Below are positions 1 through 14,957 of a stretch of 14,957 nt of DNA, in pieces. The stretch comes from a virus: the UHGV virus genome UHGV-1298062; one strand, 5' to 3'. The notes under the pieces were generated by a model, which saw nothing but the letters and a program-made list of their open reading frames with translations, had not been told where the DNA came from and made no database searches. How positions within the stretch are numbered: position 1 is the first letter of the stretch; every line of letters starts with the position of its first letter. The translations under genes and the position numbers were made by a program.

Positions 1-86
1 GAAGCTCTACACTTTGAGCCTGTAAAATTGATTAAAAACTTATGTGTAAAATAGAACGCATTAGTCAGTAGCTAAGAGATGCAATA

Positions 87-854
87 ATGGACGATTTATC
101 GGTATACGCGAGATCATTGGATAAGGCTAAATACTATGTTTACTGTCTCTATGATACAGAAGACAAGATGAAAAGACCGTTTTACATAGGAAAAGGCAAA
201 TCGACTCGTTGTCTCGATCACATCAAGTATCCCGATGACTCTCCCAAATCCATGCGGATCAAAGAACTTTTGGCTAATAAAAAATTAGGCATAGATATTC
301 TTCGTCATGGTATGGATGAAACCACAGCCAAACTTGTTGAGGCGACATGCATCGACCTTATGGGGGTCGGAGAGCTTACGAATAAGGTACGAGGAAGTGG
401 TTCCATGATGGGCAGAATATCACTGGACGCCTACCATCACTTAGTGCTGCAAGAGGAAACTGAAATTGCTCCTGAGCACGCCGGTCTTGCCTTCCTGCTA
501 AACAGCACCTACAAGTCAGGAATGTCCGCTCTGGCATTATATGAAGCTACGCGTGGCGTATGGGCAAAGGTTCCAAGAGACGAGAATCTCAAATATGCCT
601 ACGCTACATATGGGGGCCTGATAATGGAAGTTTATCAGATTGAATGCTGGGTCAAAGCCGGTTCTCAGCAGTACTTTACAAGGGATATAGCTCTTGGCCC
701 CGACACAAAACGTTATGAATTTGTTGGCAGAATAGCCGATGAGCATATCAGAAAACTGTATGTAGGCAAATTAATCAAGAAGCCACCAAGCTACGGCAGC
801 CCTTTTGTGAAGGTTGGGGTGGTTAGGAATGAACATAGTGTTAGCGCGGCATAA
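87..854 (+). CDS. GIY-YIG-like nuclease domain protein with uncharacterised C-terminal domain
   Basis: ATG at 87 with AAGAG 8 nt upstream; 255 codons. N-terminal ~95 aa shows a GIY-YIG-like pattern (YVYCLYD ... FYIGKGK ... R..DH, then candidate catalytic E and N further on). C-terminal ~150 aa has no motif I can assign. Followed by the hairpin terminator at 870-908. Confidence 0.6.
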   Translation: MDDLSVYARSLDKAKYYVYCLYDTEDKMKRPFYIGKGKSTRCLDHIKYPDDSPKSMRIKELLANKKLGIDILRHGMDETTAKLVEATCIDLMGVGELTNKVRGSGSMMGRISLDAYHHLVLQEETEIAPEHAGLAFLLNSTYKSGMSALALYEATRGVWAKVPRDENLKYAYATYGGLIMEVYQIECWVKAGSQQYFTRDIALGPDTKRYEFVGRIADEHIRKLYVGKLIKKPPSYGSPFVKVGVVRNEHSVSAA

Positions 855-869
855 AGCTGACACTGTACT

Positions 870-908
870 TATGCATTGGCGCGTACATTGCGCCAATGCA
901 TAATTTTT
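870..908. terminator. Rho-independent terminator hairpin between convergent genes
   Basis: Perfect 13-bp inverted repeat tatgcattggcgc / gcgccaatgcata (870-882 and 890-902) with 7-nt loop, followed on the + strand by ATTTTT (903-908). Lies between the gene ending at 854 (+) and the gene ending at 907 (-). The T-tract is only on the + side, so it mainly terminates the + strand gene. Confidence 0.55.
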
Positions 909-1266
909 AACCTTTCTTCATCAACTCTCGTTTGATTTCATCGGTACGCATCGTGACATCGGCAGCTGTGATCGCCTCGTTAAGTTTCACGATGTCCTCG
1001 ATTTCCTGCGGTGACTTCTCTGCCAGATGGAAAATGGCTGCGCGAATCACGTCAGAACGGGTGAACTTCTCGAAACGAGGGATGAACTTCATCATTTCCA
1101 GCAGTTCGAAGTATTCGTCCTCCAGTGACATTGTGCGGCTTTTAATTTTCTCTTTGCCACGAGTCGGGCGTCCCTGTGGTCTGACTGGTTGGCGCAAAGG
1201 AGTTGTGTTCTTGGCCGGTGCATCAGGCTCTTTGCGCTTTGCTAGGTCACCCATTTTCATGGACAT
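907..1266 (-). CDS. small partner protein of the ParA-like ATPase (ParG/ParB-like, putative DNA-binding adaptor)
   Basis: ATG at 1266 overlaps the stop of the upstream ATPase gene (TAATG), implying translational coupling. 119 aa with a basic, Pro-rich N-terminal tail and a C-terminal region consistent with strand-helix-helix. Assignment is by position and size relative to a small ParA, not by a diagnostic motif. Confidence 0.5.
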   Translation of the reverse strand: MSMKMGDLAKRKEPDAPAKNTTPLRQPVRPQGRPTRGKEKIKSRTMSLEDEYFELLEMMKFIPRFEKFTRSDVIRAAIFHLAEKSPQEIEDIVKLNEAITAADVTMRTDEIKRELMKKG

Positions 1267-1934
1267 TATTCTTCTTCCTCCAGACTCAACAGATAATCTA
1301 CAAATTCTTCAAACTCGGCTTCCGCCTTTTTGTCGCGCTCGCTACCGGTCATTTCAAAGATAGAACGACCAGACTCTTCCGCATCATCATAGACGTTGCG
1401 GTTATATAAATTGACTGGCGCAGACTCGATGCCAAACGTCTCGACAATCTCTTTAGCCGCCAAAATGCGAGACACTTGTGATGGCAAAGCCGGGCACTGG
1501 TTCATGACCGCGCGGACCTTCACTTTATCGTTTACATTACGAACATTGTCGATAATAGGATCGATGTCACGCAGAGATTTCAAATCACGACGCTTAGGAC
1601 GAAGCGGGATAATGATAACGTCGGCCATCAGCATCGCTTGTCGCTGAATTTCGGAGTCAAAGCCACCAGCATCTACCACTACAAACTCAGCTCTACCCTG
1701 AAGCGATTTTAGGTGCTTAATGATGTCATCCTGAACGTATGCAAAAGGAATCAGCTCAAGGTCTTCGTTCTGTCGACGGTCTTCACACCAGCTTGTTGTC
1801 GTGCGCTGAATATCTATATCAGTGATATAAACCTTCTTCTTCTTTTTGACTTTCAGGCAAACGGCAATTTGCTGGGCAACAGTGGATTTGCCAGGCCCGC
1901 CCTTTGTGCCGCCAACCACAAAGATCTTGGTCAT
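1266..1934 (-). CDS. ParA/Soj-family ATPase (small, deviant Walker A; type Ib partition-like)
   Basis: ATG at 1934 with GGGAA 7 nt upstream; 222 aa. Deviant Walker A KGGPGKST near the N-terminus (VVGGTKGGPGKST). Its length and lack of an N-terminal HTH extension are typical of ParF-like small ParA proteins. Confidence 0.8.
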   Translation of the reverse strand: MTKIFVVGGTKGGPGKSTVAQQIAVCLKVKKKKKVYITDIDIQRTTTSWCEDRRQNEDLELIPFAYVQDDIIKHLKSLQGRAEFVVVDAGGFDSEIQRQAMLMADVIIIPLRPKRRDLKSLRDIDPIIDNVRNVNDKVKVRAVMNQCPALPSQVSRILAAKEIVETFGIESAPVNLYNRNVYDDAEESGRSIFEMTGSERDKKAEAEFEEFVDYLLSLEEEE

Positions 1935-2080
1935 TGGAGAGTTCCCTTTGCGTATATAATTATCGTCTGAAACAACTTGTTTTCTTATATGTGATATAGC
2001 CTAAATGCCTACGGCTGCGGTGTAAAGGTTATTTAGTAGGTTGTTATTGCCTATTGCTAGTAACTGTTTTCATTTGTCTG

Positions 2081-2109
2081 TTGAAAAAAGTGACAATCAT
2101 CTCTATATT
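2081..2109 (+). promoter_or_regulatory. candidate sigma70 promoter for the toxin-antitoxin operon
   Basis: TTGAAA (2081-2086), 17-nt spacer, TATATT (2104-2109) on the + strand in the divergent intergenic region, about 145 nt upstream of the antitoxin ATG. Read by eye, not scored. Confidence 0.4.
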
Positions 2110-2113
2110 ACGA

Positions 2114-2132
2114 GTACGGTAAATTGCCGTAC
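2114..2132. promoter_or_regulatory. inverted repeat GTACGG-N7-CCGTAC just downstream of the candidate -10 (possible operator)
   Basis: Perfect 6-bp arms at 2114-2119 and 2127-2132, placed around the inferred transcription start of the candidate promoter. Confidence 0.3.
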
Positions 2133-2214
2133 ACAATTTGATGACACATACGCAATGGGCTATAGCCCAGTTAAATAACCTTTGAGTCGAAAACTCAGTT
2201 TAAATAGAGAGCAA

Positions 2215-2243
2215 TGATGGCCTTCCTACATCACCGGCCATCA
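2215..2243. promoter_or_regulatory. inverted repeat TGATGGCC-N13-GGCCATCA adjacent to the antitoxin ribosome-binding site (candidate operator)
   Basis: Perfect 8-bp arms at 2215-2222 and 2236-2243, ending 10 nt before the antitoxin ATG at 2254 and overlapping the GGGGG Shine-Dalgarno region. Type II TA operons are usually autoregulated through palindromes at this position. Confidence 0.4.
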
Positions 2244-2253
2244 GGGGGTACAC

Positions 2254-2523
2254 ATGTCCGCACTGAAAAAGCAGCGCATCGATTTGAGATTAACCGATGA
2301 CGATAAAAGCATCATCGAGGAAGCTGCCGCAATGTCTAACCAGAGCATTACCCAGTTCATGGTTAGCAGTGCATCCGAACGTGCCGTGAAGGTGATAGAG
2401 CAACACCGTAGACTGGTTCTAAGTGAAGAGTCCTGGAATCTGGTTATGGATGCTATAAGCAATCCTCCGGCACCGAACGACAAGCTGAAACGAGCTGCCA
2501 ATCGTCTGAAAAGCATGGAGTAA
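2254..2523 (+). CDS. DUF1778-type ribbon-helix-helix antitoxin (AtaR/TacA/KacA family)
   Basis: ATG 2254 with GGGGG 5 nt upstream; 89 aa. The sequence (MSALKKQRIDLRLTDDDKSIIEEAAA...QFMVSSASERA...) matches my recollection of antitoxins paired with GNAT toxins. Only 8 nt separate it from the toxin gene. Confidence 0.82.
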   Translation: MSALKKQRIDLRLTDDDKSIIEEAAAMSNQSITQFMVSSASERAVKVIEQHRRLVLSEESWNLVMDAISNPPAPNDKLKRAANRLKSME

Positions 2524-2530
2524 TTTACTC

Positions 2531-3052
2531 GTGAGCAATACGACGATCGAGATTTTCTCTGGAGAGAACGATTATGATCTAAACGGTTTTGATTGCGGCG
2601 AAGAGTCACTAAACGCATTTTTGACCAACCACTTAAAAAGACAGCATGAAGGAAAAATTCTTCGCGCTTATGTGCTTTGCACTAAAGAAGAAATACCAAA
2701 GGTATTAGGTTATTACACTTTGTCAGGCAGCTGCTTTGAGAAAGAAACCTTACCTTCAAAGAGTCAGCAAAAGAAAGTGCCTTATCGGCATGTCCCAAGT
2801 ATCACTTTAGGCAGACTGGCTTTGGACAAATCTCTTCAAGGTCAGGGGCTTGGCTCAATGCTTGTAACTCACGCAATGCGTGTTGTGTACAATGCATCTC
2901 TTGCGGTAGGCATTCATGGGCTTTTCGTTGAGGCGTTGAACGATAAAGCCAGAGCGTTTTATAAAAGTTTGGGCTTTATCCAGCTGGTTGGTAACAACGA
3001 TCGTTCTTTGTTCTATCCAACAAAATCTATCGAAAAATTGTTCGAAGAATAA
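2531..3052 (+). CDS. GNAT-family acetyltransferase toxin (AtaT/TacT/KacT-like, tRNA-acetylating type)
   Basis: GTG 2531 is the only in-frame start, with GGAG 10 nt upstream; 173 aa. GNAT signature including the acetyl-CoA-binding block LQGQGLGSMLV. Conserved blocks (FDCGEE.LN.FL, ILRAY.LC, LGYYTL.GSCFE, PS.TLGRLA.D.SLQGQG, GIHGLFVEALN.KA..FYKSLGF) match tRNA-acetylating toxins as I recall them. Confidence 0.82.
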   Translation: MSNTTIEIFSGENDYDLNGFDCGEESLNAFLTNHLKRQHEGKILRAYVLCTKEEIPKVLGYYTLSGSCFEKETLPSKSQQKKVPYRHVPSITLGRLALDKSLQGQGLGSMLVTHAMRVVYNASLAVGIHGLFVEALNDKARAFYKSLGFIQLVGNNDRSLFYPTKSIEKLFEE

Positions 3053-3084
3053 TGTGTCCCCCTCATTTGAGGGGAACTTCGACA

Positions 3085-3288
3085 TCACCAACCGCAAACT
3101 CTCTCTCCCATCGTATTGTGAAAAAGGATTTGGCGTTCGGTTTCTTCGGTCATTACATCGTCATTGCTGATATAAATAGGTTCAGCGCCATCGCAGAACA
3201 ACACGCTGGTGGTCTGTGGCTTAATTGCGCACCCACTTATCATGCAGCTCACGATGAATGGCAGAAGCATCTTTCTGACGTATTTCAC
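3085..3288 (-). CDS. outer-membrane lipoprotein, o-spanin (Rz1)-like, overlapping the 3' end of the upstream gene
   Basis: 67 aa from GTG 3288 (alternative ATG at 3270). n-region MKYVRK, hydrophobic core, lipobox ISGC with Ala at +2 (outer-membrane sorting under Lol rules). Overlaps gene 3221-3472 by 68 nt in another frame. Not proline-rich, unlike lambda Rz1. Confidence 0.5.
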   Translation of the reverse strand: MKYVRKMLLPFIVSCMISGCAIKPQTTSVLFCDGAEPIYISNDDVMTEETERQILFHNTMGERVCGW

Positions 3289-3472
3289 TGTTCATCTCAT
3301 TCACCACTTCCACTGTGCTTTGAAGACGCTTGTTATCTTCCCGCCGTTCTTTCTCTTCCATACTGCGTCTGGCCATATACCCGCCATAGGAGTATGCGCC
3401 GACAAGGACTAGAATGACGGCGGCCAGAGTGAACAAAGCGGATTTCATTTTGAACAACAGGCCGTCGAACAT
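3221..3472 (-). CDS. small inner-membrane protein with N-terminal TM helix and charged coiled-coil tail (i-spanin/Rz-like, unusually short)
   Basis: ATG 3472 lies 2 nt after the stop of the upstream gene; 83 aa. Hydrophobic segment SALFTLAAVILVLVGAYSYGG, then a highly charged helical tail (RRSMEEKERREDNKRLQ...). Confidence 0.55.
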   Translation of the reverse strand: MFDGLLFKMKSALFTLAAVILVLVGAYSYGGYMARRSMEEKERREDNKRLQSTVEVVNEMNSEIRQKDASAIHRELHDKWVRN

Positions 3473-3474
3473 AC

Positions 3475-4167
3475 TTACACTAATCCTTTCTGGTGCTTGC
3501 GAACCTGGGACCAGGCAATGAATGCTGCCACAAGAATGGTAGCTACGCCAAAGATGATGCGTACCGTATCTCCACTGGAGATATTGCCTTGCGCTTTATC
3601 CATTGCGGCAGAAACTTGAGGCATAACGTCAGCAATTTGTGCAAGGCCAATACCTGCAGTGACTGTAGCACCTGTGGTTTCTTTTGTTACAGGAACGGCT
3701 TTTACAGCCTTTACCGGTTTGACAATGCCGGCACGTCGCAGACCTTCTTCGATAAGTTCTGGTGTATACCAGCTATTGGGGGTTTTCAGCGGACCTCGGC
3801 CATTTTCATGTCTAATGATCGCCTCTACCAGCGGTCTTAAGGTCTCGTAGTCATGCAGATCGATAATCATATCTGGTGCTACTCCAACGGCTTTGGATAC
3901 CTCGTTCACATAAGCCAAAGTGTTGTTCTCATGTGGAGGCGCCCAGCGTTCGATGACTTCGCGGATCGTATCAATGCTGGAGCCATCTTTTGCGCGGCGC
4001 TTGTCGTGGTAAGTAATGAGTGTCACTGCCAAAGCCCGAATCCCCCACACGGGGTCTTTGAACGTGCAGAAACGCGGTTCTGAAGAGTTGTTGACTAAGC
4101 CCTGCCACGGCGCTCCTTTATCAAGATTACCGGGGTTGTTATTACGAATGCCTCTCGGAGTTTTCAT
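3475..4167 (-). CDS. tail-anchored membrane protein with unassigned N-terminal domain (RNNNPGN block) and C-terminal TM helix
   Basis: Preferred start ATG 4167 (AGGAG 7 nt upstream); the ORF extends to an ATG at 4194. 230 aa, no N-terminal signal peptide. N-terminal ~150 aa globular domain (GIRNNNPGNL...W.G..., HENGRG), Lys/Val/Thr-rich linker, C-terminal hydrophobic helix IIFGVATILVAAFIAWSQV followed by RKHQK. Confidence 0.7.
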   Translation of the reverse strand: MKTPRGIRNNNPGNLDKGAPWQGLVNNSSEPRFCTFKDPVWGIRALAVTLITYHDKRRAKDGSSIDTIREVIERWAPPHENNTLAYVNEVSKAVGVAPDMIIDLHDYETLRPLVEAIIRHENGRGPLKTPNSWYTPELIEEGLRRAGIVKPVKAVKAVPVTKETTGATVTAGIGLAQIADVMPQVSAAMDKAQGNISSGDTVRIIFGVATILVAAFIAWSQVRKHQKGLV

Positions 4168-4180
4168 CCTTGATCTCCTG

Positions 4181-4504
4181 TTATTGCAATCCATTTTTTA
4201 CGCCATACGCGGCCAATCCTAAAAGCAGTACGGTAATAATGAACGACGTTATTTTCGAAACAATGCCGCCAAAGAACCCACTGGAGATGGTGTCGAGCCG
4301 GTTAAGAAGTTTGTCCAGATTGGAGTGCTGAATGCTGTGTTGTGCGGGCGTCATATCGCCAAAGTAGGTTTTGAGCTGGTCATTGACCTCCTGACCAATT
4401 TCCTCGCGTATTTCTTTACCTAATTTGCCTACGACTTCCCGAGCAACGATTGAGGCGATGCGCTCAACCTGTTCAGTTGTGACTCCCGCCATCTCGTTCG
4501 ACAT
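4181..4504 (-). CDS. small tail-anchored membrane protein (charged soluble N-terminal region, single C-terminal TM helix); holin-like or regulatory
   Basis: Preferred start ATG 4504 (GGAGGA 5 nt upstream); the ORF extends to an ATG at 4516. 107 aa; C-terminal helix ITSFIITVLLLGLAAYGV. A 13-nt gap containing the next gene's RBS separates it from 3475-4167. Confidence 0.65.
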   Translation of the reverse strand: MSNEMAGVTTEQVERIASIVAREVVGKLGKEIREEIGQEVNDQLKTYFGDMTPAQHSIQHSNLDKLLNRLDTISSGFFGGIVSKITSFIITVLLLGLAAYGVKNGLQ

Positions 4505-4540
4505 GTTTTCCTCCATGAAAAGTCAAATCGGGATGGCGTG

Positions 4541-4549
4541 TTTATATCA
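4541..4549 (-). promoter_or_regulatory. candidate extended -10 element (TGATATAAA) for the membrane-module operon
   Basis: Minus strand reads TGATATAAA (complement of 4541-4549), about 25-35 nt upstream of the first in-frame ATGs of gene 4181-4504. No convincing -35 hexamer. Confidence 0.35.
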
Positions 4550-4564
4550 TATTTTAACCATTTG

Positions 4565-4588
4565 TAGTAGGTATGTACTTACCTACTA
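4565..4588. promoter_or_regulatory. perfect palindrome tagtaggta-N6-tacctacta upstream of the membrane-module operon (candidate activator or repressor site)
   Basis: 9-bp arms at 4565-4573 and 4580-4588 with 6-nt spacer tgtact. Centre lies about 42 bp upstream of the start site inferred from the extended -10. The core is shared with motifs at 7978-7997 and 14787-14802. Confidence 0.4.
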
Positions 4589-4637
4589 TATATCTTGCAA
4601 ACTAATCGTTGTTAATAATGCAGATATAATCTGCCCC

Positions 4638-5219
4638 TTACTCTGCTGGTATTGTTGGCCAGTCAATATCCGGTGCCGTTGATGTGTCAATGCGGTTCAA
4701 TAAAACTCTATACTTCTTCCATGCAGTCAGCAACGATGCTTCTTCCTCCGTTGCAATCTCCAAATCTACAGCATCCTGAAGTGGCGCAATGTGCTCGCTG
4801 GCTACCTGCATCAGACTTTTTTTTGTTTCTTCCGCTTCCCGTACCTGAAACAATTTTTCTGTTTCCTCATCCTTCTCCCAGGATGTGCCGTCCCACTTCT
4901 GATATTCCCCATCCGGTGATAACCAGGTGACATTTTCCGGTAATGGCCCAAGTTCAGAAATAAACAACGCGTCCCCTGATTCCACGTCATAGACCGTTTT
5001 ACCCCTGTGGTCTTCAACGAGACTCCATGATTTATTTTCGCTGTTGAATACGGCCACGAAGCCTGCCGGAATATCTGGCGGTGCAATATCGGTACTGTTT
5101 GCTGGCAGACCTGTATAAGGCGGAATATATGCGTCACCTTCACCAATAAATTCATTAGTTCCGGCCAGCAGATTATAAATTTTTATGGTCCGTGGTTGTT
5201 CACTCATTCTGAATGCCAT
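4638..5219 (-). CDS. tfa: tail fibre assembly protein Tfa (lambda Tfa-like)
   Basis: 193 aa. Matches phage lambda Tfa along its whole length as I recall it ([34 protein letters not shown]...[14 protein letters not shown]). ATG 5219 overlaps the stf stop (TAATG). Confidence 0.9.
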
Positions 5220-7933
5220 TATGCAAGCCTCACAATATAGTTAAATGCGATGTTTTTGACGGTGTTTTCCGCGTTACCAGCAGCGTTAACGGTGATGGTG
5301 TGTCCATGTGAACCAATCGCAACGGAGTGCGTATGAGCACCAATACCGACAGTATGTGTGTGTGCACCTGCGCTTGCAGCAGTACCCGATACAGAGTGCG
5401 TATGAGCGCCTGCAGAAGAAGTGTTAACACTGTATTTAGAATAATCAGGTGATCCACTTCCCGGAGCACCACTGGAACCACCTGAAACAAATGTCATCGA
5501 ATGGGTATGTGCACCGGCTGAAGCAGCCGTACCGCTAACACTATGGGTATGCGCACCAGTGTTATTCGTGGATTTAGTGCCGTAATCAAACGACGATGTG
5601 GTTTTCGTCCCCAAATCCGTACTGGATGCGCTGGCGCTGTGGGTGTGCGATTTAATGCCGTCCTGTTCCTGAGACAATACGGCACGACCACTGGCGGGCT
5701 TGCCCTTAATCGTCCAGCCACGCATATCAGGGATCACGCCTGACGGATACGCAACCGCAAGCAGGGGATAGGCTGCCTTATCAAAAGCCTGCCCCTGCAT
5801 AATGGCATAGCCTGTAGGTACTGAATCAGAAGGCCACGGAATCGCCGCACCTACCGGAAATGAATCCTGCGGCGTCCAAGGTGTCCAGCCACCCGTTGAA
5901 TACTGGCTGCGGGTATAGCTTCTGGATGTGTTATACACATAGTAAATTTGTGTTATTCCGGCATTTTTAAGCACAACCAGAGTGCCCGCAAGGTTCTCCG
6001 GGTATTTCAGCGATGCGCTTGCATTCGCATTCAGTGGCTGATGGTACAGCCCCGGCGTTTTGTAATTATCCAGATTCTGGTTTGCACCAATCTCAATACT
6101 CTGACTGTTAAAAATATCCTGCGATGTAACATTGACATCATTGGTCAGTGGTTTGCCATTGACCTTACGCTCGCCAGGAACGCGCCCGTTTGCATTATCA
6201 TTAGCTGCTTTCACTGCTTTCGGTGTCGCGGCAAACGTTTCAGATGCGCTGTTGGTTGCACTACTGAGCTGGACAATTCCTTTTTGTGCTGTCGTAGCGT
6301 CCTGAGCAGTATATTTCCCGTTAGCAAGGTCATAGGCTGCCTTTACCGACTTTGGCGTTGCCGCCAGCATTTCAGATGTGCTGTTGGTCGCGTTGCTAAG
6401 CTGAACTATCCCTTTCTGTGCTGTCGTTGCATCCTGTGCGGTGTATTTCCCGTTAGCCAGGTCATACGCGGCCTTAACGGCTTTTGGTGTTGCCGCCAGT
6501 GACTCGGAAGTACTGTTGGTCTCACTGCTAAGTTGTACTATTCCCTTATTCGTCGTGCTTGCATCCTCAAGCGCCACGGCGGATGCAATATCCTCTGCCC
6601 GTTTTGCCGCTGTCTCAGAGCGTGTTGCCGCGGATTCTGCCGCATTTTTGCTCTGCGCAGCCGCCGTCGCACTGTCTGCCGCTTCCGTCGCCTTCGTTGA
6701 TGCCGTTGTCGCACTCTCTGCTGCCGCTGACGCCTGGCGAGCGGCCTCATCTTTTGAAGATGACGCCGAGGAAGCTGAAACAGAGGCAGAGCTTGCAGAT
6801 TCGGCTGCTGTCTCCTTAGAAGCAGCGGCATTGTCTTCTGAAGTCTTTGCATTGGTTTCAGAAGATTTTGCCGCCTCTGCTGACTTTTCCGCAGCTGTTG
6901 CCTGTTCCGTCGCCTCTGTCGCTTTAGCGGTGGTATTTGCCGCAGATAACGAAGCGCTTTCCGCAGACTTTTCTGCCGACGTTGCACTTGATGAAGCACT
7001 ATCCGCGCTTATTGAGGCCGCGCTCGCTGACGTTTCTGCCGCAGATTTAGAACTGTTTGCAGACAATGCACTCTGTTCGGCAGCAGCTTCAGACGCTTTT
7101 GCGTTTGTCTCTGATGCTTTTGCTGCCTTACATGAATTTGCAGCTTCTGTAGCTGATGATGCTGCCGCGTTTGCACTCGATGAAGCGTTAGTCTCTGATA
7201 ATTTAGCCGCATCCTTAGATGCAGAGGCACTGGACGCTGATGTGGCTGCCTCCGATGCTTTAGTCGACGCCACAGATGCTGATTTTGCTGCCGCTTCTTT
7301 TGCCGCTTCTGCGTTTGTTTCAGATTTTTCCGCAGCAGCTGCACTCTCACTCGCCGCACTTTGTGAAGATACCGCAGCGGATGCACTTTGAGATGCCTGA
7401 GAGGCTTTTTCTACAGCAGTGTTGGCACTTTCTGCCGCAGCGACAGCACTGGCCGCCGCCTCCCGAGCTTTGTCTCCAGCGGCCTCAATCGCATCGGTGT
7501 TATTTTTATACCACTCAACGTTTTCGTTATGCTCGTTGACGATCTGCATTAGCGGCTTAACGGTCACTTCTGTACCGTCTTCACGCTCGATTGTCACATC
7601 ATCCAGAGCGGTCAACCAACTGCGCATGGACTTGGAATCAGCCGACATACGCGACATTAGTGCAGTAAAGCGCGCACTAAACTGAGTTAAGTCGCCTTCA
7701 TAGGTCGTAATGATTCGGCACGGAACTTTAGATTGAGTTTCGCCGGTATAAGGTTCTGAGAGGACAATGACCGTATCACTGGTTACGCGCTTGACCTCAT
7801 ACAACTTATTGTCAGGACCAATGACAATCATGCCCGGTAACACGCCGTTTTCGGTCAAATTCCAACGTGTTCCGATGCCTGATATTGTGTCGCTTCCTTT
7901 TGTAAATGTAACAGTACCTTCCCTGTACCACAT
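5219..7933 (-). CDS. stf: side tail fibre protein Stf (lambda Stf-like C-terminal part, different N-terminal domain)
   Basis: Preferred start ATG 7933 (AAGGAG 11 nt upstream); the ORF extends to GTG 7975. 904 aa. Ala/Ser-rich low-complexity shaft, three tandem tail-fibre repeats ([42 protein letters not shown]), C-terminal block matching lambda Stf ([45 protein letters not shown]) with HxH repeats. Confidence 0.9.
6190..6570 (-). repeat. about 2.8 tandem copies of a 132-bp in-frame repeat inside stf (phage tail-fibre repeat)
   Basis: Period seen directly: gtatatttcccgttagcaagg at 6309 and gtgtatttcccgttagccagg at 6441 (132 bp apart). Encodes the repeated KGIVQLSS...[19 protein letters not shown] unit. 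Boundaries approximate. Confidence 0.6.
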
Positions 7934-7953
7934 GTTCTTTTTCACTCCTTGAA

Positions 7954-7975
7954 GTGTGGGCGTCCTTGCCCACAC
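7954..7975 (-). other. GC-rich hairpin in the stf leader (8-bp stem gtgtgggc/gcccacac, 6-nt loop)
   Basis: Perfect inverted repeat at 7954-7961 and 7968-7975, 20 nt upstream of the stf AAGGAG RBS. No U-tract follows on the mRNA strand, so it is not a classical terminator. Confidence 0.4.
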
Positions 7976-7977
7976 AA

Positions 7978-7997
7978 ATAGGTATATACTTACTTAT
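7978..7997. promoter_or_regulatory. imperfect palindrome ataggta-N6-tacttat sharing the GTAAGTA.ATACCTA core with the site at 4565-4588
   Basis: 7-bp arms with one mismatch. On the minus strand it reads GTAAGTATATACCTA versus GTAAGTACATACCTA at the other site (14 of 15 identical). Lies in the J-stf intergenic region. Confidence 0.35.
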
Positions 7998-8068
7998 TAT
8001 CAATGATACAAAATCCTTTTGCACTAAGAAAACACGCTATATACATTGCTGCTCATTATTCCTATCAA

Positions 8069-11000
8069 TTAACTGATGCCCGACATGGAAAATGCGCCAC
8101 TTCCACGGCTGATTAGCATCACGGGCGAATAAATATGTGTCTGTGATGAACTGGTCACTTTTACCGTAACAGCAACAGTTCTTGAGGTAACATTGTTAAA
8201 AGCAGCGTAAAGAGTGCCACCGACGCCTGTAGATCTTGTTGAATTAAGATCAGGGTCTCTGTATGTTGCCCCCTTACCAGTGGCTGCGGTCTTCGTCACT
8301 CCATTGCAGGTAAATTGTGCTGCAACAGGGCCGACGCCCCCCGTATATACATTTATTGCCACATAAATATTTTTGGGCAATGCAGACGAAGAAGAGTCTG
8401 TATATGTCATTGTATATGTGCCGCTGTTACGAACTGAGAAGTCATTGCCCACATACATGTTAGCGACATCGCCTACGAAGTGATCTGCTTGTACCGTGCC
8501 TCTGAATGTTCCGCTGGTAGCCTGTATTTCTCCTGTGAATTTGCCATTCGTTGCGTAAACGGTGCCTCTAACAGTTACATTGTTAAACTCTGAGTTCCCG
8601 TTTTTATTAATATGCCACCCCGTCATCCCGCTTGAGTAATCGTTGGACTGAATGAAGTTGCCTATTTTGGCGTTATCAATGGTGCCGTTCTTGATATAAG
8701 CTCCGTTCATATAAGCCACACCGGCATCAATAACGAATGGCGTTGTAATTTTCCCATTAACGGAGTTCACCAAACCAAAGCGATCTGCCTGCACCAAAAA
8801 CTGCGATAGACCTGTTGTGTCGATGCCCAACGCTATGCCGGCAACATATTTTTGGCCTCCGCTGGTGGAGGTTTCCATTTTCAGCGTCCAGGCTGTTGAT
8901 ACCTTCTTGTTCGTATCAGCAATAGCTGTGGCCTGTTGTTGAATTGTTGCTGTATTTCCATCTACTGATGCTTTTAAGGTGTCAACTCTCCCACTTAGTG
9001 CATTGTCGGCGCTTGTACGCGTAGTCGCTTCAGATGTAATCGCAGCATGAATATCTTTGCTCGTTTGAGCCTGTAGATTAGTGATATTAGAAGCCAAAGC
9101 GGAATCAGCATCAGTTCTGGCTTTCGTCTCTTCAGCTACAGCCGCCTTAATATCCTTGCCCGTTTGACTCTTCAATGTAGTTATCTGTTGTGCCAAAGAT
9201 TCGTCGGCAGTTGCTCGGGCGTTTTTTTCTTCAGATATAGCGGCACTAATATCGCCTTCAACTTTGGCTTGTAACGATAGGACTTCTTTTGAAAGTGCTT
9301 CATCGGCACTGGCTCGCGCCTCTTGTTCACTCACAATTGCGGCAGAAATGTCATCGTTAATCTTTGATTCAAGTTTGGTGATTCTGCTTCCAATAGCATT
9401 ATCCGCATCTACACGAGCCGTAGTCTCTTCAGTGATTGAAGCTCTGATATCCTCATTTATTTCAGCTCTAATCTCTTCCATTTTCGTAGCCATTGCGGAC
9501 ATATCATCTGCAAAAGCCTTCTGAGTTGTGGCGATCCTGGCATTGCTCACCATCTGTTTGTGCTGGTCTTCATCCTGACGCAAAGCTAAATCGATGTTTG
9601 TTTTAGCCAATGCCTCAATGTTTGTCGTCACTTCGGCACTGGAGTGCTCGACTTCAGCCACGGTTTTTTTCATCTCTTCAATGGTGGCCAAACTGCTATC
9701 TACAGTTGACTTCATTGCCTCGATTTCTTTCGCGTTCGCCAAGTCGCCTTCGACTCGTGCCTCACGTTCCTCCGCAACTAAAGCCGATGAATTGTCCAGT
9801 GCTGCATTCGCGGCCTCAACCGCTCCAGCAACGACCTTGTCCTGCTCTGAAACAGTTTCCTTCAACTGAATTAATGCGGCATTTGAGTTTTCAACCTCCT
9901 TAAGAGCCTCTTCCACCTTGCTGACAGTATTAGAAACTTCCGTTCTAAGAACGTTTTGGGCTTCTTCAATCCGTTGATCGGTCTCAGTAAATTTGTCATC
10001 AAGGCTTTTCAGGCTTTCTTCCATCTGCTTGTTGATTGCGTCGACGGCTTCCTGCGAGGCTTTGGTGTCGATTTCCTCAAGCAGTTCCTGCCCCAATTCC
10101 GAAGAAGTGATCTTCCCGGTCAGGAAAGACAGAACATCTTTCGTCATCGCCTCAGTGCCCAAATTGGAGTTGGGCTGGCTCAACATTCCGCGTTTGTTTG
10201 CTGCACGAACCCAATAGAACCAAGTTTCGCTATCTCCAAGACCTGCGTGCGTAAAGGTGGTACTGGCTGCTTCGGCAATTAGTTTTGCAGTATCCAGGTT
10301 GTTGGTCCGGGATGCATACACGTTGATGTGATCGAGGTCGATTGAGTCCGGGTTAACCCAATTCAGAATCACATTGCGGTAGTCGCCCACGGCCGTCAGT
10401 GCAGTCGGTGCATCCGGCGGCGTCATCGTCCCCTGAACTTTGTAGACGGTGCTGATAATTTCTGTTTTTTTACCGTTGAATGAAACCGCATACAGTTGGA
10501 AGTCGTAGCGTCCATTCTCCGCGACATTAACGATTTCGTATTGCTCTTCGGTTACACGCGCCGATTGCCAGTTCGATACATTGTTTGCATCAGAACGTCG
10601 CCAACTGATCCAATACTCTGGAGATTTCCCTTCCCATGTTGCAGTCAGTTTTACTGACAGGTTGCCCGGGCTTGAGAGATAAGTCCCTTCAGTGATTTGC
10701 AAATTAGACGGCTTGGAGTAAGTCGGGTCCAATACCGTCGTATTCTGCGGGATAAGCGTTGCACCATTGTCGATCGCCTCATATTTAGACGGATTGTTTT
10801 CAACAGCGGTGATGTCAAAGCTACCCGACGTTTCCCCCTGAGCGATGTTAACGATGCGAACGCGCATAGGTTCGAGATCTGGTTCTGTAATTGTCCAGAC
10901 ACCGTTCAAAACAGGCGTTTCCGCTGACGACAGGGCTTTTGAAAACGTAACTTTTGTTATATTTTCGCCAGTTTCAAGAACATCGCGTTCAACGATTTTG

Positions 11001-12643
11001 CCTTCCTGATTCAGTATTCGAATAAAGCAGCCGCCTTTGGCTAACGACACAGGCGCATCGAGTGTGACGCTGTTTTTAGTAAACGCCACAATTCGACCTG
11101 AGTTACGTTTGCCTGCGCGATATTTGTTCTGAATCAGAACGGTTTCACCAGGCATCAAAAATGACGCGTCTAAGCCGGCAGTAAATGTAATTACATCCGA
11201 CTCCATTCTGGCGGTATATAAAAGCCACAAACCAACTCGGTGAGCCTGCCCTCGGCTTGTACAGCCAAATGCTACGACTTCTGTCTTACGCTCACCATAA
11301 CGGCGCATTGCGTCCTGATCTTCAACGTACTCGATGTTTTGCTTATAACCGTCCTCCTTGTTGTTGTAGGTTACGAGCGCAACGGATGGGCGATCTTTAC
11401 GCGCAGAACCTTTATAGGTAAACAATCCATCTTTGACGTTAGAGTTGGTAAACATCATTACCGGATCTGATGGGCTATCCTGCATGATGTTAACCATCCC
11501 ACCAGCCCAAAACACCATGCCGCGGAATGCTCCAGCAATATCCTGAATTAGCCGGTATGCGTCCTGTCGACTGGTGATCTGCGTATTGATTGCAAAGCGT
11601 TTCTCTTTGCCACCAAAGCCATCATCGACCTCTTCGTCACAATATCGACCAATCTGGTACAACTGGCCAAGGTCAATCATAGATTCCGACACATACTGAC
11701 CAAGGCCATATCGAGCATTGGTCAGCAAATCAAAGAGAATCCACGCAGGGTTTGAAGAAGACAACAGCTTAAAAGTACCGTCCCATACGCCGACATAAGT
11801 ATTGGTGTATTCGTTGTAGTTTGACGGTACTCGGATTTTTATACCGCGCACCAAATACGAACGGGAAGGCATTGTGCTACCAAACTGCTCTGAATTGACC
11901 TTCAAGCCAACAAGAGCAGAGTTAGGGTAGTTCATTGGCGTGTCGACAATTTCCCCGATGGAATCCACCCATGTATCGTTATAGAGATACTGAGTTTTGC
12001 TGTCGTCGGTTAGACGTATGACACGAACCTTATATGCACGGCCAGGTTTCGGCAGTTTGAGTTCATAGCTGCGGTAGTAAACACCTGTCTTCTTCGCTGT
12101 CAGTGCAATTTCAACGTCTTTCTCACCTTCAGCAACGACATCGGCAAATGTTCCATCGCCATTGGCAATCTGGAACTTGTATTTGACTGTTGTACCGTTG
12201 GTGTCGCCGGATTTCTTATCCACGGAACGTAGAGAGGGGAATTTGAGAATGAGTCGAACGCGGTCAGCTTCATCGTTATCGATGGAGACCGTGACATCAT
12301 GCGTCTTTTTCAACTGAATGTTGATGGACTTCGGCGTCTCGACGAAATCAAAACCGGCCATAGGCGTCTGATCTTGCGAACCATCGCGAAAATCCCATGT
12401 AATACCGCTGTAGTTTGCAGAGCCGTCTTCATTGAGGATCGGCAGGTCGTCGATAAAAATCGACTTTGCTCCGTCGACAAGACCGCCAATAACGCCTTCC
12501 CCGAGCAAGTCGAGGATGGACGCCATAGCACGCGAGTTAACGGTATCATCGGCTTCAACCGGCGTGCGGCTGGAGCTGCTGCTTTTCTTGCCGCCTGCAC
12601 CTGCGATCAGGAGAGGCAGTCTTTTCTTCTTGAACTGTTCCAT
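8069..12643 (-). CDS. J: tail tip host-specificity protein J (lambda gpJ family) with central coiled-coil insertion and divergent C-terminal domain
   Basis: Preferred start ATG 12643 (AAGGA 10 nt upstream); the ORF extends to TTG 12649. 1524 aa versus about 1130 aa for lambda J. Conserved gpJ blocks present (GKKSSSSSRTP N-terminus, VWDGTFK, AFGCTSRGQAHR.GLWL, YVAGI.LG....LSQFLV). Roughly 330 aa of coiled-coil repeats inserted in the middle; last ~140 aa unlike the lambda J C-terminus. Confidence 0.92.
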   Translation of the reverse strand: MEQFKKKRLPLLIAGAGGKKSSSSSRTPVEADDTVNSRAMASILDLLGEGVIGGLVDGAKSIFIDDLPILNEDGSANYSGITWDFRDGSQDQTPMAGFDFVETPKSINIQLKKTHDVTVSIDNDEADRVRLILKFPSLRSVDKKSGDTNGTTVKYKFQIANGDGTFADVVAEGEKDVEIALTAKKTGVYYRSYELKLPKPGRAYKVRVIRLTDDSKTQYLYNDTWVDSIGEIVDTPMNYPNSALVGLKVNSEQFGSTMPSRSYLVRGIKIRVPSNYNEYTNTYVGVWDGTFKLLSSSNPAWILFDLLTNARYGLGQYVSESMIDLGQLYQIGRYCDEEVDDGFGGKEKRFAINTQITSRQDAYRLIQDIAGAFRGMVFWAGGMVNIMQDSPSDPVMMFTNSNVKDGLFTYKGSARKDRPSVALVTYNNKEDGYKQNIEYVEDQDAMRRYGERKTEVVAFGCTSRGQAHRVGLWLLYTARMESDVITFTAGLDASFLMPGETVLIQNKYRAGKRNSGRIVAFTKNSVTLDAPVSLAKGGCFIRILNQEGKIVERDVLETGENITKVTFSKALSSAETPVLNGVWTITEPDLEPMRVRIVNIAQGETSGSFDITAVENNPSKYEAIDNGATLIPQNTTVLDPTYSKPSNLQITEGTYLSSPGNLSVKLTATWEGKSPEYWISWRRSDANNVSNWQSARVTEEQYEIVNVAENGRYDFQLYAVSFNGKKTEIISTVYKVQGTMTPPDAPTALTAVGDYRNVILNWVNPDSIDLDHINVYASRTNNLDTAKLIAEAASTTFTHAGLGDSETWFYWVRAANKRGMLSQPNSNLGTEAMTKDVLSFLTGKITSSELGQELLEEIDTKASQEAVDAINKQMEESLKSLDDKFTETDQRIEEAQNVLRTEVSNTVSKVEEALKEVENSNAALIQLKETVSEQDKVVAGAVEAANAALDNSSALVAEEREARVEGDLANAKEIEAMKSTVDSSLATIEEMKKTVAEVEHSSAEVTTNIEALAKTNIDLALRQDEDQHKQMVSNARIATTQKAFADDMSAMATKMEEIRAEINEDIRASITEETTARVDADNAIGSRITKLESKINDDISAAIVSEQEARASADEALSKEVLSLQAKVEGDISAAISEEKNARATADESLAQQITTLKSQTGKDIKAAVAEETKARTDADSALASNITNLQAQTSKDIHAAITSEATTRTSADNALSGRVDTLKASVDGNTATIQQQATAIADTNKKVSTAWTLKMETSTSGGQKYVAGIALGIDTTGLSQFLVQADRFGLVNSVNGKITTPFVIDAGVAYMNGAYIKNGTIDNAKIGNFIQSNDYSSGMTGWHINKNGNSEFNNVTVRGTVYATNGKFTGEIQATSGTFRGTVQADHFVGDVANMYVGNDFSVRNSGTYTMTYTDSSSSALPKNIYVAINVYTGGVGPVAAQFTCNGVTKTAATGKGATYRDPDLNSTRSTGVGGTLYAAFNNVTSRTVAVTVKVTSSSQTHIYSPVMLISRGSGAFSMSGIS
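8975..9470 (-). repeat. five tandem 99-bp in-frame repeats inside J (33-aa coiled-coil units)
   Basis: Repeat landmarks at about 9051, 9150, 9249, 9348 and 9447 give a 99-bp period. Encodes five units of the form DI.AAI..E...R..AD.AL...I..L. Copies are diverged; boundaries approximate. Confidence 0.55.
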
Positions 12644-12659
12644 GTTCAAAAAATCCTTA

Positions 12660-13253
12660 TTACATAAGCTGGTCGATGGTGATAGAAGAACTCACAACCT
12701 GCGAGCCAACCAAAATTTCCTCTCCATAGATCAGCTGCACCGGGTTTCCCTGGTTAGTGGTGTTCTGCGGCCCATCGAAATAGAACGAGTCGGAGTTATC
12801 TGCCTGTCTTACACTTTCGTTAGTGGCTTGCGGAGATATGATTTGCGCTATACCGCCCATCATCAGTGACAAACCGAGAGGTGCTAAAGCAGGCATCATT
12901 ACCGCCGATACAACCAACAAAGCGGCTCCTACTACCGTCTGAAACCACCCAAAAGCAGAACCGCCGCTTCCTCGCGGAACAGGGGTAATGCGGATTTTGG
13001 CTATGTTGTCAGACTGCCCCATCATCTGATATTCACTCTCGTCCACAGACCACTTGTGGCCCTGTTTATTGGTGATCTGGATGTGGTATCTGTCATAGGT
13101 TTTGATGTTGCGCTTCATCCATGCTTTAAACCCAGGCTTGTTGGCCTCAATTAAATCCAGAGCCTGCTTGGTGTTGCGAACTTTCAAATGCCAGTGACGA
13201 CCAAAATGTTTGGCCATAGGGCCGCCAAGTTGCACATGAACTAACTCAGACAC
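12660..13253 (-). CDS. I: tail assembly protein I (lambda gpI-like)
   Basis: GTG 13253 with GGGAG 7 nt upstream; start lies 10 nt inside the 3' end of K. 197 aa. N-terminal ubiquitin-like region (VHVQLGGPMAKHFGRHWHLKV, compare lambda ARICLYGDLQRFGRRIDLRV), hydrophobic Gly/Ala-rich middle, C-terminal VQLIYGEEILVGSQVVS (compare lambda VLPVLYGEMRVGSRVVS). Confidence 0.85.
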   Translation of the reverse strand: MSELVHVQLGGPMAKHFGRHWHLKVRNTKQALDLIEANKPGFKAWMKRNIKTYDRYHIQITNKQGHKWSVDESEYQMMGQSDNIAKIRITPVPRGSGGSAFGWFQTVVGAALLVVSAVMMPALAPLGLSLMMGGIAQIISPQATNESVRQADNSDSFYFDGPQNTTNQGNPVQLIYGEEILVGSQVVSSSITIDQLM

Positions 13254-14038
13254 TTTTCATCTCCCTTGAGTAAGTCTCTGTGACGCAGATGGTGCGTCGT
13301 ATGTTTCTGGTACATGCCGCCGTAATAAGCGCGACAACTCAGGCGGTCGATTTGGTGATGCAGGATCATGCCGTCTCCGATATACACCGCGCAGTGATCA
13401 GGCATTTTCCCGTACTGGATGAAGAAGACATCGCCGCGCTGCGGCTCCGTCCCTGGCGCAAGACGCACAAGCCCTTCATTTCGATAGTTATGGTCGAGAA
13501 TGTCATCATCACCCGTGTACCATGACGGAATATGCAGATGCGCATTCGGGTTCAGCTCGACACCAAACTCTCGTTTCAGATAGTCGCGACAAAGCATCCA
13601 GCAGTCGAAGACGCCGAACACATAGGGTCGGCCCAGATAAGGCATCTCAAAGCCGTCTGGGGTGATCACATTCATTTCACTGAAGTGAAATGGCGCATCG
13701 CCCTCGATGTTCTTGCGAACAGCCAGAATCAGCCACGGAACTTCCGTTGCCTCACATCCGGCGCGGTCGGCGTCTGACGCATCAGCAGATTCGTCAGTAT
13801 GGGAGTGCCAGATGGCAACCACGTCTCCCGCATCTTCCGCAGTGATAATGTCGTCAGCGTGCATAACAAACGTGTTTTCCGGGTGCTCCGACACGTTCCG
13901 GGCTTCAATGAAGCGATATTTCTCGCCAGTGGTACGCACCAGAAAGCCACACGCTTCGTTCGGGTAACGTTTAATGGCTGTCAGATAGATTTCCTGCATA
14001 ACGTCCGAACCAAGCTCCGGGAATACTCTATTGCCCAT
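13241..14038 (-). CDS. K: tail assembly protein K (lambda gpK-like; JAB/MPN plus NlpC/P60-type domains)
   Basis: N-terminal region resembles a JAB/MPN domain (NEACGFLV ... IWHSHTD) and the C-terminal region resembles the NlpC/P60-type part of gpK (FDCWMLCRDY ... HCAVYIGDG). Start uncertain: ORF opens at TTG 14065; in-frame ATGs at 14038 (chosen, overlaps the L stop by 11 nt) and 13999. Confidence 0.82.
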   Translation of the reverse strand: MGNRVFPELGSDVMQEIYLTAIKRYPNEACGFLVRTTGEKYRFIEARNVSEHPENTFVMHADDIITAEDAGDVVAIWHSHTDESADASDADRAGCEATEVPWLILAVRKNIEGDAPFHFSEMNVITPDGFEMPYLGRPYVFGVFDCWMLCRDYLKREFGVELNPNAHLHIPSWYTGDDDILDHNYRNEGLVRLAPGTEPQRGDVFFIQYGKMPDHCAVYIGDGMILHHQIDRLSCRAYYGGMYQKHTTHHLRHRDLLKGDEKCLS

Positions 14039-14729
14039 AACGCGTTGCCCCAATGAACCCGCCAAAGTGGATTACGCCATTGGCAAAGTAGTTGCGCCGT
14101 GCGTTGCATGAGTCGTAACGTTTCGTGCAGCAATCCGCTCCTGACATGGTGGTTTGCTGGTTGTTTTTGTCGAAGTACGGACCGGTGTAGCCGCACTCTG
14201 GTCCGCGGTATCTCCACGGGCATGTGTTTTTGATGATCTGGCGGTACGGCAGCTGCACGCCCATCAGATCGAACACACTCGACAGCTCAAACTCGACGAC
14301 CTCATGGGTTTCGAGAGTCTTCTGTTCGATGAACCACATCTCATCCGGGAAGTGCTGATTTGGATCTGCGGTTGGATTCCCGTCTTTGAAGTTGGCCTCG
14401 TCGAGAAAACGCGCCAGCGTCATCTTGCGGATGATGCGGCAACCCACCAGATCGTCGTTTGCCTGAACTTCAGCGGAGACAGTTCCGGCAAAGTTGGAGA
14501 CCTGGATTTTTGGACGCGGCAAAGTACCCTGACCAGTCTTATCAAAGCCTGACGCTTTGATTGGCCACGGTTCGTAGGACACGCCTTGCCAAACAACCGG
14601 CTCCATCAGCTCGTTTGTACCAGCGTGGAAATATAGCTTGCCTCCAGAGGTGGTGTTCGACATATCAAGTTCGAACAGTTCAATGAGCGCGGAGGGCGAC
14701 AAGCTCTGAATATCAGCTTTAATACCCAT
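14028..14729 (-). CDS. L: minor tail protein L (lambda gpL-like)
   Basis: Preferred start ATG 14729 (AAGGAAG 5 nt upstream); the ORF extends to ATG 14762. 233 aa. Matches lambda L blocks (WQG..Y.P.PI..SGF...G.G...P...VSN, R...ARFLD..NF.....ADP, NTC.W.YRG.ECGY.GP, C.K....C..R.N..NFGGF). Confidence 0.88.
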   Translation of the reverse strand: MGIKADIQSLSPSALIELFELDMSNTTSGGKLYFHAGTNELMEPVVWQGVSYEPWPIKASGFDKTGQGTLPRPKIQVSNFAGTVSAEVQANDDLVGCRIIRKMTLARFLDEANFKDGNPTADPNQHFPDEMWFIEQKTLETHEVVEFELSSVFDLMGVQLPYRQIIKNTCPWRYRGPECGYTGPYFDKNNQQTTMSGADCCTKRYDSCNARRNYFANGVIHFGGFIGATRYGQ

Positions 14730-14751
14730 TGTTTCTTCCTTGAAATAAAAA

Positions 14752-14774
14752 GGCGCCAACATCCTGTCAGCGCC
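14752..14774 (-). other. terminator-like hairpin just upstream of the L ribosome-binding site
   Basis: ggcgc / gcgcc 5-bp GC stem (14752-14756 and 14770-14774) with 13-nt loop. On the minus-strand transcript it is followed by UUUUUAUUU and then the L RBS. Short stem and large loop, so strength is doubtful. Confidence 0.3.
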
Positions 14775-14902
14775 ACAATGATAGTAAATTAGTACTTACT
14801 TATCCAGGTACTTAAGCCTCAAATACTTGTCTGAATGTAGCAGTTAAGACACAGTACCCCTGATATCGCTTAGACTGGCCCCCTGAATCTCCAGACAACC
14901 AA

Positions 14903-14922
14903 TATCACTTAAATAAGTGATA
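14903..14922. promoter_or_regulatory. 20-bp palindrome TATCACTTA-AA-TAAGTGATA (candidate dimeric DNA-binding protein site)
   Basis: Perfect 9-bp arms with 2-nt spacer in the non-coding region upstream of L. Half-site TATCAC equals the first six bases of the lambda operator consensus half-site, but the spacing differs from 17-bp lambda operators. Confidence 0.35.
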
Positions 14923-14957
14923 GTCTTAATACTAGTTTTTAGACTAGTCATTGGAGA

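Follow-up and report, generated by a model that had tools for sequence, protein, structure and literature searches.

The last 155 bp (14803-14957) of the window, the 14,957-nucleotide stretch of the virus genome UHGV-1298062 analyzed here, raise the question of what occupies the place upstream of tail gene L where tail gene M would be expected. The first-pass annotation described the interval as non-coding and palindrome-dense. The interval is, with a confidence approaching certainty, made up of the end of the M-L intergenic spacer, the last 19 codons of M and the left end of the insertion sequence IS2 inserted in codon 93 of M.

Tail genes L and M and the spacer between them

A BLAST search with positions 14500-14957 behaves as a two-part query with a clean split at the boundary between phage and repeat. 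Up to about position 14875 the matches are to the region annotated as minor tail protein L and minor tail protein M in SSU5-like phage-plasmids, with identities of 87-90% to the Escherichia phages Cyrano, CMS-2020a and PhiR41_1 and to Salmonella phage SSU5, and of up to 99.5% to E. coli plasmids. From 14870/14871 onward the query matches a repeat that 4,773 of the 5,426 complete E. coli genomes contain. Alignment of window positions 1-14870 with pEC21Z137-115K, an E. coli phage-plasmid of the SSU5/pHCM2 type, shows the two to be collinear over 14.87 kb at 99.8% identity. The annotation of pEC21Z137-115K places on the minus strand the genes for tail fiber assembly, tail fiber, J-like tail tip fiber, tail assembly protein (I), C40 peptidase (K) and L, followed beyond L by a "phage tail protein" that is truncated by the end of the match. 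The collinear, near-identical cluster with homologs of M and L and the spacer of the family between them is that of an SSU5-like tail module, and the host element is typical of SSU5/pHCM2-type phage-plasmids.

Two further observations concern the host element outside the flagged interval. A full-length match to the Rfam family IS009 (RF02111) at 4678-4876 on the minus strand, with 189.6 bits compared with a gathering score of 117, lies inside a coding sequence, the tail fiber assembly protein gene at 4638-5219. On the plus strand at 2254-3052 the annotation of the near-identical plasmid gives an adjacent pair encoding a DUF1778 protein and a GNAT N-acetyltransferase, which by annotation looks like a TacA/TacT-type toxin-antitoxin module and is placed between the tail module and a block of AAA ATPase and GIY-YIG genes, the GIY-YIG protein (WP_001711193.1) being encoded at 87-854.

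Gene L occupies 14028-14729 on the minus strand and encodes minor tail protein L (233 amino acids), with residues 27-231 matching Pfam PF05100 (Phage_tail_L, E = 1.5e-95). The annotation of pEC21Z137-115K gives L these coordinates as well, and the start at 14729 is the RefSeq start in this 99.8%-identical relative. A longer reading frame of 244 amino acids, the longest for L and the one used by the program-made list of open reading frames, begins at an ATG at 14762 inside the hairpin region of the spacer. Cyrano is annotated from the counterpart of this longer start. In RefSeq and in SSU5 the gene is annotated from the ATG at 14729, an ATG with GGAAGAAACA before it. Of the two, the shorter reading is more plausible.

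The native M-L intergenic spacer covers 82 bp (14730-14811, minus strand) and is aligned and conserved with those of Cyrano, SSU5 and Klebsiella pJN2-26. M likewise ends 82 bp upstream of L in the intact relative, and a conserved spacer of about 82-89 bp is found in all SSU5-like relatives examined. It contains a conserved AT-rich block at about 14778-14806 and a hairpin at 14752-14774 followed by a T run, which is terminator-like with a folding energy of -15.2 kcal/mol and z = -4.4 in a single-sequence fold. The hairpin recurs in Klebsiella pJN2-26, where the stem is built from other bases (CAACGUA.ACA/UGU.GACGUUG), and this retention of the fold with an altered stem points to selection on structure; both hairpins were taken from single-sequence folds, as RNAalifold applied to four spacers mis-gapped the Klebsiella sequence. 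Across the SSU5-like elements of E. coli, Salmonella and Klebsiella the spacer is more strongly conserved than the adjoining 3' end of M. A promoter and terminator scan of the native spacer gave one site of each type; the number of promoter-like sites was no better than in shuffled sequences, and an Rfam scan of the flagged interval (14803-14957) gave no match. The hairpin may serve the tail operon as an internal terminator, an attenuator or a processing site, and the 82-bp spacer, with its AT-rich block and covarying hairpin, is possibly a regulatory element, as yet undescribed, inside the tail operon of this family.

Adjacent to the spacer, positions 14812-14870 on the minus strand hold the 3' remnant of minor tail protein M, which by translation starts at the second base of codon 93 and runs through codon 111 to the stop codon. 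The translated remnant, KRYQGYCVLTATFRQVFEA followed by the stop, is identical to the C terminus (residues 93-111) of M from the intact relative (WP_000442113.1), a protein of 111 amino acids that matches Pfam PF05939 (Phage_min_tail, 2.6e-35) over its full length. With 19 amino acids the remnant is too short to obtain a Phage_min_tail score of its own. Followed upstream past 14870, the M frame enters IS2 and meets stop codons there, which is why no open reading frame was seen in the first-pass annotation. The region of at least 195 bp upstream of L said to be devoid of a reading frame is accordingly not found, being divided between the 82-bp spacer that follows the L start at 14729, the end of M at 14812-14870 and IS2. 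Nor does the reported absence of gene M hold, as the gene is split with its 3' end inside the flagged interval, and as read from the alignment M is interrupted by IS2, not missing.

Homologs of M are needed in lambda for completion of the tail tip. Given this requirement, a copy whose M lacks its last 19 residues is probably unable to make functional tails, and by analogy with lambda the element would probably be a copy without functional tails that still replicates as a plasmid.

The IS2 left end and its regulatory sequences

The last 87 bases of the window (14871-14957, plus strand) correspond to nucleotides 1-87 of IS2 and match at 87 of 87 positions three complete 1331-bp IS2 copies located on plasmids (L003, L004 and L006), with the direction of orfA opposite to that of the tail genes. 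Two of these three copies are surrounded by 5-bp target duplications (ATGCT and CGCTT), and the flanks of L004 mismatch. The copy in Shigella phage SfX (U82084), annotated as 'insertion sequence:IS2', matches at 84 of 87 positions and has the duplication GCCTG. The identity with pEC21Z137-115K ends at 14871/14872, and the identity with IS2 begins at 14871. In the intact target CCCCTGATATCGCT is followed by TGACCGTATG (ATCGCT/TGACCG across the break), compared with CCCCTGATATCGCT followed by TAGACTGGCCCCC in the window. Among about 50 complete IS2 copies in IMG/VR for which both flanks allowed comparison, approximately four-fifths carry 5-bp duplications directly abutting TAGACTGG; nucleotide 1 of IS2 is therefore window position 14871, and codon 93 of M is thus broken between its first and second bases. 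The predicted 5-bp target-site duplication is TCGCT, as judged from the intact target and the 5-bp duplications of the other copies, with one of its two copies visible at 14866-14870.

The left inverted repeat of IS2 (IRL) is 42 bp in length (PMC3299598), and its sequence, TAGACTGGCCCCCTGAATCTCCAGACAACCAATATCACTTAA, is given within a construction oligonucleotide (PMC3219604). Positions 14871-14912 on the plus strand are identical to this published IRL, start with TAGACTGG and its TA terminus, and are the same as the ends of the complete 1331-bp copies. A variant left end is seen on the E. coli plasmid pLKJULY7989 (L005, 1592-1637), where the first 23 nucleotides of IS2 (TAGACTGGCCCCCTGAATCTCCA) are tandemly duplicated and the IS2 copy has no matching 5-bp duplication. 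This copy adjoins the GIY-YIG protein WP_001711193.1 that is also encoded in the window, so pLKJULY7989 is another SSU5-like plasmid with IS2 at a different site.

The strings listed in the first-pass annotation are all present at the positions it gave on reading 14300-14957, and the most prominent of them, TATCACTTAAATAAGTGATA at 14903-14922, is nucleotides 33-52 of IS2 (inverted repeat I4). Described earlier as a perfect 20-bp palindrome, it has a 9+2+9 arrangement in which perfect 9-nucleotide arms, TATCACTTA and TAAGTGATA, surround a central AA that is not self-complementary and breaks the perfection. It is highly non-random, as none of 200 dinucleotide-preserving shuffles of the window gave a match even with two mismatches. 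The palindrome occurs in one copy in the window. It spans the inner end of the 42-bp IRL such that its left arm is the inner element of IRL, and the dyad is composed of this inner element and its mirror image. The right inverted repeat (IRR, as in L003) has the left arm TATCACTTAA as its inner element too, and the right arm occurs at the left end only.

The motif TAAATAA lies at 14910-14916 in the center of the palindrome. In IS2 the OrfA repressor site 5'TAAATAA3' has been located in residues 39-48 (TTAA plus ATAAGT), and the weak promoter PIRL begins with 5'TGAT3' at bp 48-51 (PMC3299598). Transferred to the window, the OrfA docking residues 39-48 correspond to 14909-14918 and the PIRL TGAT to 14918-14921, so that a putative OrfA site followed by a putative extended -10 PIRL is found at 14909-14921 in the published positions. 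The start of PIRL with its extended -10 element TGATAGTCT is placed at 14918-14926 on the plus strand, the TGAT being taken from PMC3299598 and the extent of the hexamer from reading the sequence. OrfA dimerizes through residues 58-105 (cited in PMC3219604), and the dyad symmetry of the palindrome would suit binding by dimeric OrfA. In the diverged IS2 of SfX (L002, 490-512) the arms of the palindrome are intact and the central AA is replaced by TT (TATCACTTATTTAAGTGATA), and the docking sequence is therefore TATTTAA instead of TAAATAA.

Downstream of the promoter, GACTAGTC at 14942-14949 is an 8-bp palindrome in the orfA leader that contains the SpeI site ACTAGT, and a SpeI site is described downstream of the extended -10 promoter of IS2 orfAB (PMC3219604). 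The window ends with GGAGA (14953-14957, plus strand), the Shine-Dalgarno sequence of IS2 orfA. In complete IS2 copies the sequence goes on as GGAGAACAGATGATTGATG, in which GGAGA is followed by ACAG and an ATG located 4 nucleotides past the end of the window, and ORF1/orfA is annotated from that ATG.

The shorter repeats noted in the first-pass annotation are present and have little weight. The direct repeat CCCCTGA(T)ATC is formed by CCCCTGATATC at 14857-14867, which lies in the coding sequence of M and is also found in intact relatives, and by CCCCTGAATC at 14880-14889, which lies in IRL; the two copies are adjacent only because of the IS2 insertion. Of random 40-nucleotide pieces of the window, 18% match the IS2 end at least as well, and the CCCCTGA(T)ATC repeat is a chance occurrence. 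The TTAGACTRG units are TTAGACTGG at 14870-14878 and TTAGACTAG at 14939-14947. Simple arithmetic gives an expectation of about 0.4 for a direct repeat of 8 of 9 positions within 87 nucleotides and of about 0.6 for an 8-bp palindrome in 155 bp, so that neither the units nor the 8-bp palindrome GACTAGTC is remarkable alone.

A preference of IS2 for targets resembling its own ends was considered and rejected, since random 40-mers of the window are as good in 18% (IRL) and 17% (IRR) of cases, as expected by chance. A target consensus, prompted by the resemblance of the BLAST-selected copies L006 and L003 to the flank in the window, was likewise rejected, an unbiased sample having given none: in 100 distinct IS2 left flanks drawn from IMG/VR the information content is at most 0.19 bit per position, and none is close to the flank in the window. 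Two independent IS2 targets do have the 12-mer GATATCGCTTGA in common with insertion points 1 nucleotide apart, one being gene M (window 14862-14870 together with the intact target L001, 3364-3375) and the other a site-specific integrase gene on an IncI plasmid (L006, 1599-1610 and 2942-2949). L006 was chosen by BLAST for the similarity of its flank from more than 5,000 records, and the coincidence is probably a matter of selection bias.

Origin of the junction

IS2 moves by a copy-out-paste-in mechanism via a figure-of-eight and a minicircle in which the abutted ends form the strong promoter Pjunc (PMC3299598, PMC3219604). The visible junction would be the product of integration of such a minicircle, with nucleotide 1 of IRL joined to the target. 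IS2 is proposed to have transposed into codon 93 of M with its transposase genes on the plus strand, opposite to the tail operon. A simple insertion predicts a full 1331-bp IS2, a second TCGCT and then the other 92 codons of M beyond it; the window holds one IS2 end only, and what would lie beyond 14957 is orfA and orfB with the A6G -1 frameshift window, the 41-bp IRR, the further copy of TCGCT and the beginning of M. From the functions described in the literature, the 42-bp IRL starting with TAGACTGG would be bound by the OrfAB transposase, and dimeric OrfA (InsA) would dock at the TAAATAA operator and repress the adjacent weak extended -10 promoter PIRL. The segment with GACTAGTC and the SpeI site, together with GGAGA, would serve as the leader and ribosome-binding site of orfA. 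The outward -35 element of IS3-family members is located in IRR, which faces away from L, and L would therefore gain no fusion promoter from this end. Inactivation of M by the insertion would leave the copy unable to build tails.

The junction was looked for in other sequences. A 32-mer covering the exact left junction is absent from GTDB representative genomes, IMG/VR and JGI metagenomes, and BLAST gave no record spanning it in the 5,426 complete E. coli genomes or in PLSDB. The predicted right junction, GGGGCAAATCCA-TCGCT-TGACCGTATGACTG, composed of the IRR end, TCGCT and M, is absent from GTDB representatives and JGI metagenomes.

These absences are compatible with a different event, an IS2-mediated deletion, inversion or cointegrate formation that joined the 3' end of M to IS2, in which case the far side of the element would carry neither the remainder of M nor the tail genes upstream of it. 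The left junction is the only one visible, and complete IS2 copies without matching 5-bp duplications exist elsewhere (L017, L036, L079, L093, L106, L124 and others). Such a rearrangement is nevertheless unlikely, as duplications are present in most of the complete copies sampled, the visible side is wholly collinear with the intact relative, and the break exactly at IS2 nucleotide 1 is predicted equally by simple insertion. An assembly artifact, in which the contig was extended into an IS2 repeat that does not truly adjoin M, is less probable still. The window stops 87 nucleotides into IS2, and 21 of 122 IS2 left ends from IMG/VR (loci L011-L130) lie 41-126 nucleotides from the end of the stored stretch, which shows that assemblies commonly break inside IS2; a contig that breaks within a repeat, however, normally records the true adjacency at its unique side, and a random chimera would rarely have its junction at the canonical first base of IS2.

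The remaining proposals in the first-pass annotation concern the nature of the interval. A regulatory site, as it suggested, is in a loose sense present in the form of a repressor operator and promoter region, but the operator is that of IS2's own OrfA/InsA; a recombination substrate is present in the form of the transposon end at 14871-14957, and 14870/14871 is a junction joining unrelated DNAs, but none of these is a native part of the phage. The operator for a prophage repressor, to be conserved in relatives, is not found there, as the corresponding position holds coding sequence of M and the palindrome is absent. Comparison with the M-L junctions of related elements, suggested at the same time, essentially shows M nearby with an ordinary, conserved spacer, and this argues against a non-coding region in its place. 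That a native regulatory region or module junction has replaced M, with the palindrome as a prophage repressor operator, is thus extremely improbable, for although the palindrome is highly non-random and loosely resembles lambdoid operators (TATCAC...GTGATA half-sites), its sequence is absent at this position in SSU5-like relatives, all with intact M, is identical to IS2 and present at thousands of unrelated sites, and has IS2 OrfA as its documented binding protein (PMC3299598).

Insertion of IS2 in codon 93 of M is the reading retained. The IS2 left end is itself already known and a textbook entity, with every defining feature that can be seen in the window present, and the only new item appears to be where it has inserted, in codon 93 of the M gene of an SSU5-like element, a site unrecorded in the collections searched. 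The interval is appropriately labeled "IS2 left end" and "minor tail protein M, interrupted (pseudogene)" and not as a candidate regulatory region, and has little significance past annotation. A tentative extension, held with rather less than even confidence, is that the insertion is very recent and possibly unique, knocks out M, may be polar on L-K-I-J with IS2 in the antisense direction, and has left a tail-less copy maintained only as a plasmid. If true, the window would capture the domestication of a phage-plasmid in progress. A copy defective as a phage and competent as a plasmid is what the insertion predicts, and this bears on the counting of "intact" phage-plasmids in surveillance data.

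Comparison with known systems

The closest comparison is with IS2 of E. coli (IS3 family, IS2 subgroup), to which window positions 14871-14957 are identical over nucleotides 1-87 with no difference in the visible part; the features in common are IRL, the TAAATAA site, the PIRL TGAT at nucleotides 48-51, the SpeI site and the orfA Shine-Dalgarno sequence. IS911 and other IS3 elements, which move by copy-out-paste-in, share the inward -10 element in IRL, the outward -35 element in IRR and the junction promoter formed in the minicircle, together with production of OrfA and, by -1 frameshifting, of OrfAB. The two differ in that OrfA of IS2 is a promoter-proximal repressor acting at the inner end of IRL, whereas OrfA of IS911 is without such a function (PMC3299598).

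On the phage side the SSU5/pHCM2-type elements (SSU5, Cyrano and pEC21Z137-115K) have the common gene order tape measure, M, L, K (C40 peptidase), I, J-like tip fiber and tail fiber, with the same M-L spacer as the window. The difference lies in M, which is interrupted by IS2 in the window and intact with 111 amino acids in the SSU5-like relatives examined. Phage lambda has homologous M and L genes (Phage_min_tail and Phage_tail_L) in the same order. The overlap of M with L in lambda, as stated in the first-pass annotation and used there as the yardstick for the missing gene, contrasts with the SSU5-like relatives examined, in which M and L are separated by the conserved spacer of about 82-89 bp with its hairpin. 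The lambda arrangement is therefore the wrong yardstick for this locus, and lambda gene overlaps are an unsafe template for SSU5-like tail modules.
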